Shown: one piece after another, positions 1-4,385 of the stretch
Numbering within the stretch: position 1 is the first letter of the stretch
How the letters are laid out: every line of letters begins with the position of its first letter
NCBI GenBank assembly: GCA_965197285.1
Contig: OZ240092.1
Coordinates: forward strand, 5,570,345-5,634,344
Source of the DNA: Acidobacteriota bacterium
GTDB taxonomy: Bacteria > Acidobacteriota > UBA6911 > RPQK01 > CBDAPI01
Length of the DNA stretch: 64,000 nt
Reading direction: 5' to 3'
Translations under genes and position numbers: made by a program
Notes under the pieces: generated by a model
Told to the model about the DNA's origin: nothing
The model's input: only the letters and a program-made list of their open reading frames with translations
Databases searched by the model: none

Positions 1-1791
1 GAAACGGGCAATACGGATGGCCGCCTTGAGAGGGGCCGCCTGCATCTGAGTCACGAGCCGGCAAGGACCCACCACCAGAAGCGTCGTTTTCTGCCCGTGC
101 TGTGGGCGGGAGGGGGGTCCTCCGCCTTCCGGCGAGACTACTTTCTCAGGCTGGGAGGGTTCGCTTCCATTTTCTCTCCGTGCTATGTGGAAGATACCGA
201 TCTAAGTTACCGGGCCTGGAGACGGGGCCTCCGGGTCCTGTTCGCAGCCGGCAGCCGGGTCGTACACAGGCATCGGAGCAGCTCCCGGCGGCGCTTCAGC
301 GAACAGCGGATTCAAGAGATGGTCGAACAGAGAAAACTCTGGTATCTGTGGAGGAACTTCCAGCCGCGCTCGCTCCTCTCCCACTTGCTGCTGTATCCGA
401 TTCATGTCGGCGGGGCGATCACCGCGGCCGGCTATCTCAGAGCTCTGATCAGGGCGCCTGGCGCTCTCATTTCGAGGGCTGGTGAACCCACCCGCCGTTA
501 CCGGGACCGGCAGTTTGTGGGCTGGATAAGACGGCCGCTGGCCTACCTGAATCACTTTTCTCCGGATCGCCATCGCGACAGCCGGGGAACCGTCCCCCGC
601 GTTCTCATCGCGAGTGCCTATCTTCCCCACCTGGGGCGGCACGGCGGTGCAGGGCGCGTCTTTCAGCTCTTGAGACGGGTCAGCGATAACCACCGCCTGA
701 CTCTCGTCAGCTTCGTCGAGACCGGGGAAGAATCCGAACAGGCAAGGCAAGCCGCTCCTTTCTGTCAGCGGGTGGAGACCGTCCTGCGCCGCCGGTTCGA
801 GCCGGTCTCCCCATTTCTCTACGAGCCATTCGAAGAATTCAACTGTGCCAACTTTCGGGAATCGCTGGAAGGTGTGCTGGCAGAAGAAGATTTCGATCTG
901 GTTCATTTCGAGTGGACCCAGATGGCTCAGTATGCCGATATGTTTCCCGGCGTTCCCAAGCTGGTGACTGAAATCGAGGTGAATTACGCAGCTCACCACA
1001 GTCTGGTGGCAGTGGAGACGAATCCGCTGAAGCGGCTGCGGCTCTACTACAATACCCTGCAGACGCTTCACCGCGAGCTTCAGATGTGCCGCAGGACGGA
1101 CGGAGTTGTCTGCGTGACCGACACCGACGCAGCTTTCCTGGCGGGGTACGTCCCCGATTCCAGGCTTCACGTCGTGCACACCGGCGTGGATACCGGCTAC
1201 TTTACGCCGGGAGCACCTGATCAGATTGAACCCGACTCGGTGGTATACATTGGAGCCTTCCGTCATGAGCCCAATGTGGATGCCATGCTGTATTTTCGGC
1301 GTGAGATCTTTCCTCTACTGCTGGAGGCCAGACCCACGACGCATCTGTACATCGTGGGCTCCTCCCCTCCGCCTGAGATCAGACGTCTGGAGAAGCACCC
1401 CAACGTCACGGTGACCGGTTTCGTGGAGGATATCCGCGAGTACTACCATCGGGCACAGGTCGTCATCGTACCCCTTCGGACGGGAGTGGGAATCCGCGGC
1501 AAAATCCTGGAGGGCTGGGCCGCTGAAAAGGCCATGGTGGCGACTTCGCTTGCCTGCATGGGCATCCGGGCCGGCCATGGAGAGAATATCCTGATTGCAG
1601 ATGACCCGGCCGAATTTGCTCTCTGGACGCTGGCCCTGTTGCGCGATCCCGAGCATTGCCGGCGGCTGGGAGCGGCCGGTCGCAGAACCGCCGTTCGATA
1701 CTACGAATGGGACGACCTGGGACGCCAACTCTCCACCCTTTACGAGAGCATCGCCGGTGGGAACTCCGATCACAGGGAAAAGAGAGCTTGA
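1..1791 (+). CDS. Glycosyltransferase, GT2 C-terminal part fused to a GT4 (Glyco_trans_1/4-like) domain; 5' end lies outside the window
   Basis: Frame is open from base 1 (ETGNTDGRL...). GT2 motif GGF...F...YVEDTDLSYRAWRRG; GT4 motifs HGGAGRV, YIGAFRHEPNVDA, VPLRTGVGIRGKILEGWA. Confidence 0.85.
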   Translation, partial: ETGNTDGRLERGRLHLSHEPARTHHQKRRFLPVLWAGGGSSAFRRDYFLRLGGFASIFSPCYVEDTDLSYRAWRRGLRVLFAAGSRVVHRHRSSSRRRFSEQRIQEMVEQRKLWYLWRNFQPRSLLSHLLLYPIHVGGAITAAGYLRALIRAPGALISRAGEPTRRYRDRQFVGWIRRPLAYLNHFSPDRHRDSRGTVPRVLIASAYLPHLGRHGGAGRVFQLLRRVSDNHRLTLVSFVETGEESEQARQAAPFCQRVETVLRRRFEPVSPFLYEPFEEFNCANFRESLEGVLAEEDFDLVHFEWTQMAQYADMFPGVPKLVTEIEVNYAAHHSLVAVETNPLKRLRLYYNTLQTLHRELQMCRRTDGVVCVTDTDAAFLAGYVPDSRLHVVHTGVDTGYFTPGAPDQIEPDSVVYIGAFRHEPNVDAMLYFRREIFPLLLEARPTTHLYIVGSSPPPEIRRLEKHPNVTVTGFVEDIREYYHRAQVVIVPLRTGVGIRGKILEGWAAEKAMVATSLACMGIRAGHGENILIADDPAEFALWTLALLRDPEHCRRLGAAGRRTAVRYYEWDDLGRQLSTLYESIAGGNSDHREKRA

Positions 1792-1814: not shown

Positions 1815-3991
1815 ATGGGTGACGGCGACCGCCGACTCCTGCTCGTGCAGTGCTGTCACCTCCCCCAGTTTTTTTATCTGGCGGAGGTACTGCGCCGGCA
1901 GTTTCCAGCGGCTGTGCTGGACGCCCTCGTCATTCGGTCGGATGACCTCGACTTCTATCTCTCCAGGCAGAATCCATTCTCATCGGTCCTGACTCCCTCC
2001 TCGGAGTCTCTGGAGGAGGCGAACTACTCGCAGATCCTTTTCCCGCTGTTGAACCGCGGGTATCGATCGATAAAAAGGGCGGCTCGACGACTCCCGGGAC
2101 CCGCGCTTGAAATCGACTACCAAGGGCTGGCGCGCCCTCTGACGCGGGTTCGGCTGGCGCGCTCGGTCGTATATCCCGTGCATCAACCTGACGCGGCCTT
2201 CAGAGAGTATCTGCTTAGCTTTCCCCACCGGCCTCTGGGCGAGAAGGTGCTGTTCGTACAGAGCTGTCATCCCTCTCTGGTGAACGCGACCGAGCCGGTG
2301 TGGCGCCATGCCCTCCCCGATTCCTGCGAGCTGACGCGTGTCACCCCGCAGTCGTTCGTCAAGAGCATGCGGCTGCTGAAAGGTCGCACGTTCGACTCGT
2401 GCATCGTTTTCTTCTCCGGCGAAAAGGGTTATTCGGGACTCAAGTTTTTGCCGTTTGCGTTGAGAGTGCCGAAGACTCTGGTCGTTAATGAGACCGGAGA
2501 CTTTTTCTATGCCACGCGGGCGGGCCTCCTGCGGTTTCTCTACCAGAGAGTTCGCTTCGGGTCCTCACTCCCGCGGCCGACTCGCAGGATCGTGTTCATC
2601 GAGACGGAGGAGGTCTCTAGCTGCCGCTTTGCCCTGATCCGCCTGAAGTCGGCTGAACTTTTTCCAAACAGCGAAGTCTTCGTCCTATGCCGTCAAGAGT
2701 ACGGTTCGCGTTACGCAAACGAACCGGGCGTGGACCGGGTTTTTGACTTGAAAAAAGGTGACTGGCTCCACAACTGGCGCACCTTTCGGCAGCTTCGTCG
2801 GGCCAATCCGGATATCGTCTCTGCCGTTTTCTCGGGGAGGCCGATCTTTCGCAAAGCCAAATTCCTTTTCCTGCTGCTGTGTGACCGCCCGGTCCTGGTT
2901 TTCAACGCTGCTGTGGAATGCTACTTCCTCAAACCGCGCACGCTGTCCCGCATGCTGGCCCGGGAACCCCTTCGCTTCGGCCCCTCCCTCGCTTCCGCAC
3001 GGTCAACGCCCATTGTGGTGACCCAAACCGAGCACGCCGGCATGGTGCGTGAGTCCATCCGGCGCCTCACTTCCCCGGGACTCTACCCCGGGGTGCGATT
3101 GACGGTCGTGTGCCGGGCGGCCAACTCTTCGGATTTCGCCGATCTACCGGGCGTTGAAACAGTGCTTCCGTACCCGGGCAGCCTGGCGGGCTGGCTCCGG
3201 CTGGGCCGGCAACTGCGACAGCAGAAACCGGTCCTGGTCAGCCTCATTCTCTCGGGCCGCCGGTTTTTTCGCTGCATAAGCTCTTCGTGCTGGCGCTCTT
3301 CCCGTTTCGGTCCAAGCTCGTTTTCAACGCTCGTCTGGACGCGTACTGGCTGCGGCTGGGCACGCTTCGCCGAATCTTCCGCAGAGAGCCCCTCCTCATG
3401 CCCTTGCCTCCCGTAGAAACCCGCAACGAGATCCTGCTTATCCAGACCGAGGCCACCGACACGACCCTGAAGGTTCTGCAGACCCTGCTCGCGGGACGGG
3501 CCGTCGGGCGAGGAAGAGTCACGCTGCTGTGCCGGCATCAGGACCGGCATCAGTTTCTATCCACGATTGAAGAAGCCAACATCAGCACCTGGACTCCGGG
3601 AATCTCTCTGGAGAATCTGAAGCTGATGATGAGGTTGCGCGGGATCGACCGGGACGTGGTAACCGCAATCTTCTCCGGCCGGCCGGTCTTCCGGCTCCAG
3701 AAGCTCGCCTTCTTTCTTCTGCCGGCCCGCAACCGGCTGGTTTTCAATGAGAATTTTGACTGCTTTTATCTCCCCCGCCGCCGCTTCAGCAGCGTCCTGC
3801 GGCTGCCCAGTCTTCCCGGGTCGGTTGACGGTTTTTTGCCGACATGGAAGCCCTTGCTCCGGCAGACAACCAAGGTCGTGTTGTGGCCGCCCCGCTTTGC
3901 CTACCTCCTGGGCTGGCTCACAGTGGAAAAACTGAGGCGGGCGCAACGACTTCAGAGGGCGAGTCACAGCAGCCTCACCCGGCGGCCATAG
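1815..3991 (+). pseudogene. Multi-module protein of about five tandem GT9 (heptosyltransferase) N-terminal-like repeats, frameshifted at the T6 run 3264-3269
   Basis: ORFs 1656..3416 (likely start ATG 1815) and 3287..3991 carry the same repeat motif (QTE...VxCR...LR...D.V..IFSGRP.FR..K..FLL...LVFN...C.YL). One extra base at 3264-3270 joins them into about 725 aa. Could be a sequencing error rather than a true pseudogene. Confidence 0.6.
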
Positions 3992-4385
3992 AGCTGCGAA
4001 CCGGATCCGGCGAGGAATGCAGATGAGTCAACCGCCAGGTGCCGTCGTCCTTTTGATAAATCTCGGTCCAACGGCCGTTCTCGCGTGAGAGCTTGCCGTT
4101 TGACTGGTGAGCCAGGAGATACTGGGAGGTAATCCAGGCGACGTCGTCCTTCACCTCTATTTGAATGTTTGAAGTGAAGAAGGCCAGCTCGGCCAGCTTT
4201 CCGAAGTACTGCTGCAGAGTATTCTCGAAAGTCTTGAAGTCAGAAAACCGGGGCGGGGGCACCGTATTGAAAATAACAACCTGTTCGGCGTAAATGCTAC
4301 GAAGACCCGCCAAGTCTTTCTGCTCCCACGCCTTGACATGTCTTCGGTGCAGGTTGAGCAGGTGATCTCTCGGGTTGTTCCGCAT
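3975..4385 (-). CDS. SnoaL/NTF2-like (DUF4440/YybH-type) protein
   Basis: 136 aa with AWEQKDLAGLRSIYAE...DDVAW...GRWTEIYQK.DG.WRLTHLHSS, typical of the NTF2-like fold. Confidence 0.8.
   Translation of the reverse strand: MRNNPRDHLLNLHRRHVKAWEQKDLAGLRSIYAEQVVIFNTVPPPRFSDFKTFENTLQQYFGKLAELAFFTSNIQIEVKDDVAWITSQYLLAHQSNGKLSRENGRWTEIYQKDDGTWRLTHLHSSPDPVRSSMAAG

Follow-up and report, generated by a model that had tools for sequence, protein, structure and literature searches.

The DNA analysed here, referred to as the window, is a stretch of 64,000 nt of contig OZ240092.1 (GCA_965197285.1), the genome being represented by a single contig of 5.75 Mb. Near the start of the window lies a gene, called the module gene in the following, whose product consists of five consecutive modules (M1-M5) followed by a C-terminal tail and is encoded next to a glycosyltransferase (GT). 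Intact homologues of this gene (P0001-P0005) code for proteins of 730-736 aa with 69-74% identity to the product of the window's gene. In the window the gene is spread over two reading frames, and a reading of 725 aa was obtained by joining them at a run of six T residues (T6 run) at 3264-3269. Frame A starts with the ATG at 1815, continues for 49 out-of-frame residues after the break and terminates at the TAG at 3414-3416; the rest of the gene, up to the stop codon at 3989-3991, is open in the -1 frame. The products of the two frames are P0006 (frame A, protein collection) and P0183 (frame B, protein library), and the frames overlap where A ends and B begins. The features of the locus are:

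1-1791, forward strand: partner gene, coding for a GT2-GT4 fusion glycosyltransferase of 769 aa; the window opens inside this gene and contains its 3' part only
1815-3991, forward strand: module gene with restored frame (725 aa), M1-M5 and tail
1815-3416, forward strand: open frame A (533 codons), covering M1, M2, M3 and two thirds of M4
1815-2225, forward strand: module 1 (aa 1-137), divergent, with the motifs VQCCH, LNRGY..IK and EIDYQG
2226-2567, forward strand: module 2 (aa 138-251), shortened, with the motifs VQSCH, FFSGEKG and VVNE.GDFFYA
2568-2990, forward strand: module 3 (aa 252-392), canonical, characterised by AlphaFold2, Foldseek and hhalign
2991-3409, forward strand: module 4 (aa 393-532 of the joined reading), spread over two frames, recognised by the module hidden Markov model (HMM)
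3254-3269, forward strand: frameshift site GGGCCGCCGGTTTTTT, inside module 4
3398-3991, forward strand: open frame B (197 aa from the ATG at 3398; a GTG at 3287 is also possible as start), covering M5 and tail
3410-3835, forward strand: module 5 (aa 533-674), canonical
3836-3988, forward strand: C-terminal tail, a hydrophobic helix VVLWPPRFAYLLGWLTV followed by basic residues, putative membrane anchor

An earlier note on this DNA, made from the sequence alone, had described five related modules, and the starts it gave were all recovered: RRLLLVQ at aa 6 (1830), EKVLFVQ at aa 143 (2241), RRIVFIE at aa 257 (2583), TPIVVTQ at aa 398 (3006) and NEILLIQ at aa 538 (3425). The observation is thereby confirmed, the relatedness being clearest for M3-M5. 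M3, M4 and M5, each about 140 aa long, recognise one another in pairwise BLASTP comparisons (E values of 4e-23 for M3/M4, 7e-19 for M3/M5 and 1e-10 for M4/M5), the C-terminal half of M2 matches M5 (E 1e-5), and M2 aligns with the module profile in hhalign with a probability of 97.7% (E 2e-12). For M1 the profile similarity to the module and to GT9 proteins is weak (E about 1e-3) and BLASTP gave no significant match; in the AlphaFold model of a homologue the M1 region appears as a β-α-β type α/β domain with a predicted local distance difference test score (pLDDT) of 82-92, and it is mainly from this predicted fold that we assign M1 as a module. The shared motif (QTE ... CR ... FSGRPxFRxxK ... 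VFN ... LDCY), of which the note had read a version from modules 3-5, is real and is kept across 94 non-redundant homologue modules. The modules of the window share 30-39% amino-acid identity with one another, and no tandem repeats at the DNA level were found in the window's module gene; the window's own modules appear as old duplicates. M5 is followed by a helix of 51 aa only.

Searches of Pfam, NCBIfam and PDB with the sequences of the two protein pieces and a profile search of PDB with the module gave no meaningful match, in line with the note, which had not recognised the architecture from any named family. A weak match to FeoA and another to a designed Kelch protein were both discarded as chance. 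In structure prediction, AlphaFold2 modelled the homologue P0001 (733 aa, 74% identical, alignment of 44 sequences) as five separate β-α-β domains with pLDDT values mostly between 75 and 92, connected by flexible linkers of low confidence and followed by a long C-terminal helix (683-723); overall the model has a pLDDT of 78 and a predicted template modelling score (pTM) of 0.36. Module 3 of the window, modelled from 51 diverse modules, reached a pLDDT of 89.6 and a pTM of 0.84, with the order of elements β1-α1-β2-α2-β3-α3-β4-α4-β5-β6-α5. When this single module was compared with PDB by Foldseek, GT-B glycosyltransferases made up nine of the ten best matches, among them WaaF (1psw; template modelling score 0.53, root-mean-square deviation 3.4 Å), WaaC (2gt1 and 2h1h) and the GT9 protein 3tov (root-mean-square deviation 2.7 Å). 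With the whole chain WaaC and WaaF were matched at a probability of 1.00.

The Foldseek output came without target ranges, and the lobe of the GT-B fold that is matched was settled by hhalign, using as reference an alignment of 31 GT9 proteins of the same phylum. The module profile aligned with it at a probability of 95.9% (E 5e-9), positions 1-130 of the module corresponding to 3-133 of GT9, i.e. to the N-terminal domain, and the controls remained negative (reversed module, probability 0.4%; alignment of the partner GT2-GT4, probability 0.2%). A six-frame search of 301 genomes of the phylum led to the same proteins, as the sole matches outside the family were the N-termini of GT9-length proteins (E 4-8e-6, module positions 4-87); two of these three matches were confirmed by PF01075, and the third (L064) has GT9 motifs by eye. 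Likewise, in a search of 1.84 billion representatives the first true non-family matches listed were GT9 N-domains at E about 1e-7 (P0251 and P0253, the latter a double GT9). P0250, found in that search at E 8e-8, is an Ig-repeat protein and was rejected as false positive. PF01075 matches neither protein piece, even at E<=1; its model begins at about residue 70 of GT9 proteins, which is why Pfam misses the modules.

The full-length family profile, when aligned with GT9, produced five sub-matches (M3, M4, M5, M2 and M1, in falling order), all of them on GT9 2-128, and no match to the GT9 donor domain (about 170-340). Taken together, profile comparison and structure prediction show the module to be homologous to the N-terminal (acceptor) domain of GT9 heptosyltransferases and to form arrays without a donor domain. 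The note had anticipated both points, namely the likeness to the GT9 N-domain and the multiplication of the acceptor-type half alone, and the comparison with WaaC and WaaF by HHpred-, AlphaFold- and Foldseek-type methods that it proposed led to the GT9 N-domain in hhalign and to both enzymes among the top Foldseek matches.

The family is undescribed and rare. A search of 5.8 billion proteins yielded about 120 clusters, none with a meaningful Pfam domain, and the few names given by the sources are hypothetical proteins of Acidobacteriota metagenome-assembled genomes and one JGI label 'heptosyltransferase'. The JGI annotation in question, 'ADP-heptose:LPS heptosyltransferase', belongs to P0068 (877 aa); this name is very probably a mis-annotation driven by the similarity of the N-domain, because the family lacks the donor domain. 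The library of 1.84 billion representatives contains 236 members at E<=1e-3, mostly from one acidobacterial class, and in the sample of 301 genomes the family occurs in 24, all of the window's class, and no sampled genome of the same genus and order is without it. A literature search found no description of the module-array architecture.

Protein lengths in the family peak at about 720, 870, 1020 and 1160 aa, corresponding to three, four, five and six canonical modules, which are preceded by a conserved head of about 255 aa (M1 and M2). Over all loci the module count ranges from 1 to 8. Head-less forms consist of one to three modules and the tail, and stand-alone single-module proteins have 190-217 aa. 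In some arrays of relatives recent tandem repeats are visible at the DNA level, with 4.0 copies of 459 bp at 99% identity in L007 and 6.9 copies of 444 bp at 96% identity in L073. These repeats show, at the sequence level, that the module number changes by tandem duplication of whole modules and that the copy number changes fast.

The partner gene upstream codes for a protein with the Pfam domains Glycos_transf_2 / Glyco_tranf_2_3 (aa 48-272) and Glyco_transf_4 / Glyco_trans_1_4 (aa 388-722), the GT4 half being nearest to TIGR03087, a model for glycosyltransferases of the PEP-CTERM/XrtA system, albeit below its cut-off. Of the 26 loci examined, the window's included, 19 have an orthologue of this GT2-GT4 fusion (E<=1e-190) as the next gene upstream of the module gene, in many cases with an overlap of the two genes, and distant members of the class are among these 19. 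The unrelated single-module proteins P0212 and P0204 are each encoded by a gene that overlaps the end of a GT4 gene, the operon of P0212 having the order GT2, 118-aa open reading frame (ORF), methyltransferase, GT4, module. Moreover, P0207 (933 aa; L086 789-3590) is a fusion of a transmembrane helix, a module, a GT2 and a GT4, collinear with the GT of the window (E 1e-19 and 5e-16). Conserved adjacency (guilt by association) and the fusion protein (Rosetta stone) thus strongly suggest a functional partnership of the module protein with a GT2+GT4 glycan synthase, as the note had proposed for the adjacent glycosyltransferase.

Other arrangements were also encountered. P0178 (1069 aa; L088 871-4080) combines at least three N-terminal modules with a long unknown region and an S-adenosylmethionine (SAM)-dependent methyltransferase (Methyltransf_11, aa 808-891), and upstream of the GT genes of L008 and L085 there are methyltransferase genes, too. 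Two head-less two-module paralogues (L074 6936-9203 and L078 6763-8916) begin 4 nt after an Aminotran_5 gene (E 2e-40), which is class-V aminotransferase / cysteine-desulfurase-like and not a GT; this neighbour and the conserved Cys of the module may hint at a different chemistry. A further class of paralogues (722-1183 aa; L006 7658-10169 and L007 7655-11552) is found in DNA rich in transposase and toxin-antitoxin genes, where a conserved ORF of 112-113 aa without family match ends 4 nt before it.

Among the 94 homologue modules several positions are nearly invariant (T13 97%, C41 93%, G90 94%, K98 93%, N113 100%), and R42, R91, D117 and C118 are conserved as well. All these residues are located at C-terminal strand ends, which are the usual ligand site of Rossmann-like folds, be it for binding or catalysis. 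M1 and M2 carry invariant Cys-His motifs of their own. The modules are strongly basic, with a median isoelectric point of 10.5 and a net charge of +9, the isoelectric point of GT9 N-domains being 10.0.

At the C-terminus the motif K..L(F/W).PRF.YL.LW, a hydrophobic helix with basic flanks, is kept in all architectures. Its Kyte-Doolittle hydropathy reaches up to 1.95 in paralogues and is lower in the window's copy. The module protein has no N-terminal signal peptide, and from sequence and model the conserved tail helix is probably an inner-membrane anchor of a cytoplasmic protein. The idea that the helix is a PEP-CTERM-type sorting signal, which came from the nearness of the partner to TIGR03087, was dropped because a signal peptide is missing. 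In P0207 the transmembrane helix (residues 1-40) contains 'LVRLFLLL', resembling the tail motif (FPxRLFLL / PRFLYL), so that the anchor looks transferred from one end of the protein to the other.

We tentatively propose, with a probability of about 45%, that the module protein is a membrane-anchored, non-catalytic, multivalent partner of the GT2-GT4 enzyme that binds acceptor or polymer, a proposal that draws on analogy with known accessory proteins. The building block is a Rossmann-like module of ~140 aa descended from the N-terminal (acceptor-binding) domain of GT9/GT-B glycosyltransferases, and the family layout consists of an optional head (divergent M1 and short M2), one to eight canonical modules and the C-terminal hydrophobic helix. 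The helix would anchor the protein at the inner face of the membrane, so arraying there strongly basic acceptor-type pockets, one per module, which might bind an anionic lipid-linked acceptor or the nascent glycan and present or retain either for the GT2-GT4 enzyme. The protein itself would transfer no sugar, and the number of modules might tune valency or reach. What we infer here is that the protein is anchored in the membrane, that it is not catalytic, that it binds acceptor or polymer and that the number of modules has an effect. The note had suggested a glycan-binding scaffold or chain-length ruler; the GT partnership contained in that suggestion is strongly supported, whereas the role is a matter of interpretation, and the conserved pocket would suit catalysis, too.

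Several observations weigh against this proposal. With 1e-3 to 1e-2 the Foldseek matches of the module have only modest E values, as is expected of a Rossmann-like domain, and further folds of the Rossmann-like kind reach similar scores. Some paralogues have no glycosyltransferase nearby, their neighbours being Aminotran_5, a small transmembrane protein or a 112-aa ORF in DNA rich in insertion sequences (IS), so that a GT is not a strict requirement for the role of the module. In the window's copy the hydrophobicity of the tail is only moderate. Finally, T13, C41, G90-R91, K98, N113 and D117-C118 are near-invariant in each module, a conservation that exceeds the needs of a loose polymer-binding role, and the modules could therefore be enzymes.

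A different question is whether the copy in the window is functional at all. In a whole-genome profile search the module HMM matches module 4 with positions 3-95 in one frame and 90-138 in another, and a six-frame search with the module profile found no paralogue of the gene elsewhere in the 5.75-Mb genome. Short-read contigs assembled independently from the public runs X1, X6, X3, X8, X4, X5 and X7 (three studies) show zero differences from the window over 3150-3400. A variant strain from X3, X4, X5 and X10, in which 10-12 positions differ per about 140-190 nt, possesses an additional G after position 3258; with it the sequence reads SGRPVFSLHKLFVLALF and the protein SGRPVFSLHK, matching the family consensus FSGRPVF. 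As contigs of independent runs carry the window sequence and the sister strain has the extra G, one nucleotide has truly been deleted in GGGCCGGCCGG. The T6 run, through a lost T or a -1 slip, was considered as the site of the lesion and rejected, the intact sister allele differing by the G behind 3258. The two strains, about 93% identical over 3150-3400, occur in the same samples at similar depth, one with the frameshifted and one with the intact gene. The sequence of 725 aa that the note had treated as joined is thus made of two frames with a break in M4, and the note did not mention the frameshift. Probably the window's copy is not made as a single 725-aa protein; at best two fragments would arise, one with M1-M3 and no anchor and one with M5 and the anchor.

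The surroundings of the gene have also changed. In 13 loci, the window's own included, the pair of GT and module gene is flanked divergently by genes for a 204-aa protein with a signal peptide and for a secreted protein of ~1047 aa with the metzincin motif HELGHxxGxxH (L004, which is the window's own, L005 (1808-5562), L008, L065, L066, L068, L070-L073, L075, L076 and L080). Upstream of the window the ~1047-aa gene is split (L004 8944-13695; genome C1:5564288-5569039) by the insertion of a DDE_Tnp_1_4 transposase gene (L004 11678-13015), while it is intact in the relative L005. One gene being interrupted by an IS and another frameshifted, the data suggest that the locus is being inactivated in this strain. 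At the other end a SnoaL/DUF4440-like gene (136 aa; window 3975-4385, reverse strand) runs towards the module gene, the final 17 nt of which it shares; L005 has its genes in the same arrangement, with ku and a MerR-TPR gene next in order.

We consider the chances somewhat better than even that the module gene is a pseudogene here, with both fragments functionless, a reading that concerns this copy only and is compatible with the explanation given for the family. The deletion breaks module 4 in contigs from several independent runs, the conserved ~1047-aa neighbour is interrupted by the DDE transposase, and the genome has no second copy of the module gene. On the other hand, neither frame has acquired further stops or indels, so that the lesion is recent or tolerated. 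In addition, the ATG of frame B overlaps the stop of frame A, and frame B encodes a unit of module and tail with the layout of stand-alone single-module family members, so a reduced function could survive.

At the level of the family, the strongest competitor of a non-catalytic binding array is that each module, or the M1-M2 head, is an enzyme whose T/C/GR/K/N/DC pocket modifies the glycan of the GT2-GT4 partner; the reaction might, for instance, attach or cleave off a non-sugar substituent or involve sulfur or phosphate chemistry, the array then being a multi-site processing enzyme. The polar and Cys residues at the strand ends are near-invariant even in the distant single-module forms, M1 and M2 have their Cys-His motifs, some paralogues follow the pyridoxal phosphate-dependent Aminotran_5 gene, and P0178 joins modules to a SAM methyltransferase. 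However, the Pfam, NCBIfam and PDB searches revealed no similarity to a known catalytic family, the sole detectable relatives are acceptor-binding halves of GT-B enzymes, and modules that are rapidly gained and lost are less usual in enzymes than in binding arrays, which makes the enzyme reading possible but unlikely.

Less likely still is a novel chain-length or processivity device of polysaccharide synthesis, formed by pseudo-glycosyltransferase acceptor pockets strung together on a membrane anchor, in which the number of pockets would set the length of the glycan or its holding by the GT2-GT4 synthase and would have changed quickly through unequal recombination of the 444-459-bp repeats. 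A split glycosyltransferase of the Alg14/Alg13 (EpsE/EpsF) kind, with the modules as N-halves pairing in trans with a donor-binding C-half, is improbable to a higher degree. Alg14 is indeed an N-half that bears the acceptor site, is anchored in the membrane and needs Alg13 as its C-half (PMC8993221), and the module proteins are likewise N-halves followed by a hydrophobic helix. Yet no orphan gene for a donor-binding C-half was found in the neighbourhoods of the 26 loci and of L085 and L087, where the GTs are complete GT4 or GT2-GT4 proteins and the adjacent GT4 has both halves, no Pfam match to Alg14 appeared at E<=1, and up to eight N-halves would lack a matching number of C-halves. It is hardly credible, finally, that the full 725-aa protein is made, be it because the frame change arose in sequencing or assembly or because a programmed -1 shift takes place at the T6 run: the break does adjoin this run (CGG TTT TTT C), and one T read twice restores the frame, but the window sequence recurs in the short-read contigs of all seven runs from three studies, the sister strain differs by a G upstream of the T run and not by a T, G TTT TTT departs from the canonical heptamer X XXY YYZ, and a conserved recoding site does not exist, all homologues being in one frame.

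Few enzyme folds have been studied as thoroughly as that of the GT-B glycosyltransferases. A family in which the donor half was lost, the acceptor half alone retained and multiplied, and the genetic link to a complete GT2-GT4 synthase preserved was previously undescribed. The weight of the finding is limited by an inferred function, a narrow family and a broken copy, and for this particular genome the result is the more modest one of a frameshifted copy in an apparently decaying locus.

Returning to the proposal of a multivalent, non-catalytic partner of the GT2-GT4 enzyme, we compared the family with systems that share some of its traits. The closest relatives in fold are the GT9 enzymes (WaaC/WaaF; PF01075; PDB 2h1h, 1psw, 3tov), whose N-terminal Rossmann-like domain has the same order of strands and helices as the module and is strongly basic, too. 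The module array differs from them in that it has no C-terminal ADP-heptose-binding domain and no PF01075 match, in that it consists of 1-8 copies of the half-domain with a hydrophobic helix at the end, and in that the 'GD' loop after strand 1 is replaced by Q-T-E. In GT9 enzymes this Gly-Asp loop provides the catalytic base, Asp13 in WaaC; in the hhalign alignment the 'iGD' columns of GT9 stand opposite non-conserved positions of the module, the Q-T-E being located four residues earlier. Judged from these sequence features, the module protein is not a member of GT9, as it lacks the donor domain, a PF01075 match and the GD loop.

With Alg14 and EpsE the module protein shares a GT-B N-half without donor half and a glycosyltransferase partner, and its tail helix is a candidate counterpart of their element for membrane association (PMC8993221). 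The partner, however, is a complete GT4 (plus GT2) instead of a C-half, and the modules are of the GT9 type and not of the GT1/GT28 type, in keeping with the missing Alg14 match in Pfam. Tandem arrays are not known for Alg14. Our favoured functional analogy is GtfB, the non-catalytic, acceptor-binding partner of the GT4 enzyme GtfA in the glycosylation of serine-rich-repeat proteins (PMC6973325). Like the module protein, GtfB derives from a glycosyltransferase, and its gene is a neighbour of that of a GT4 enzyme. The acceptor of GtfB is a protein, however, and both lobes of the GT-B fold are present in it together with a DUF1975 insertion, whereas the module protein has only N-lobes, arranged as an array with a putative anchor helix.

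The coiled coils of WbdD and WbbB are chain-length rulers of ABC-transporter-dependent O-antigen systems and work together with terminating enzymes. They resemble the module array as an accessory element on a polymerising glycosyltransferase whose length could set the length of the product, given that the module number varies, but the module proteins show neither a terminator domain nor a coiled coil. The class of copy-number-variable tandem-domain proteins fits as well, with 1-8 modules among orthologues and recent DNA duplication in relatives.

By analogy, the module protein would work most like the accessory GT-derived subunits, from which it differs in being a GT9-type N-half, in being arrayed and in having a complete GT as partner. 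Acidobacteriota exopolysaccharide machinery is poorly known, and if the array binds acceptor or product, it would represent a tractable case for the control of polysaccharide synthesis by accessory domains in this phylum and a bacterial, multivalent counterpart of the Alg14/GtfB-type accessory subunits.

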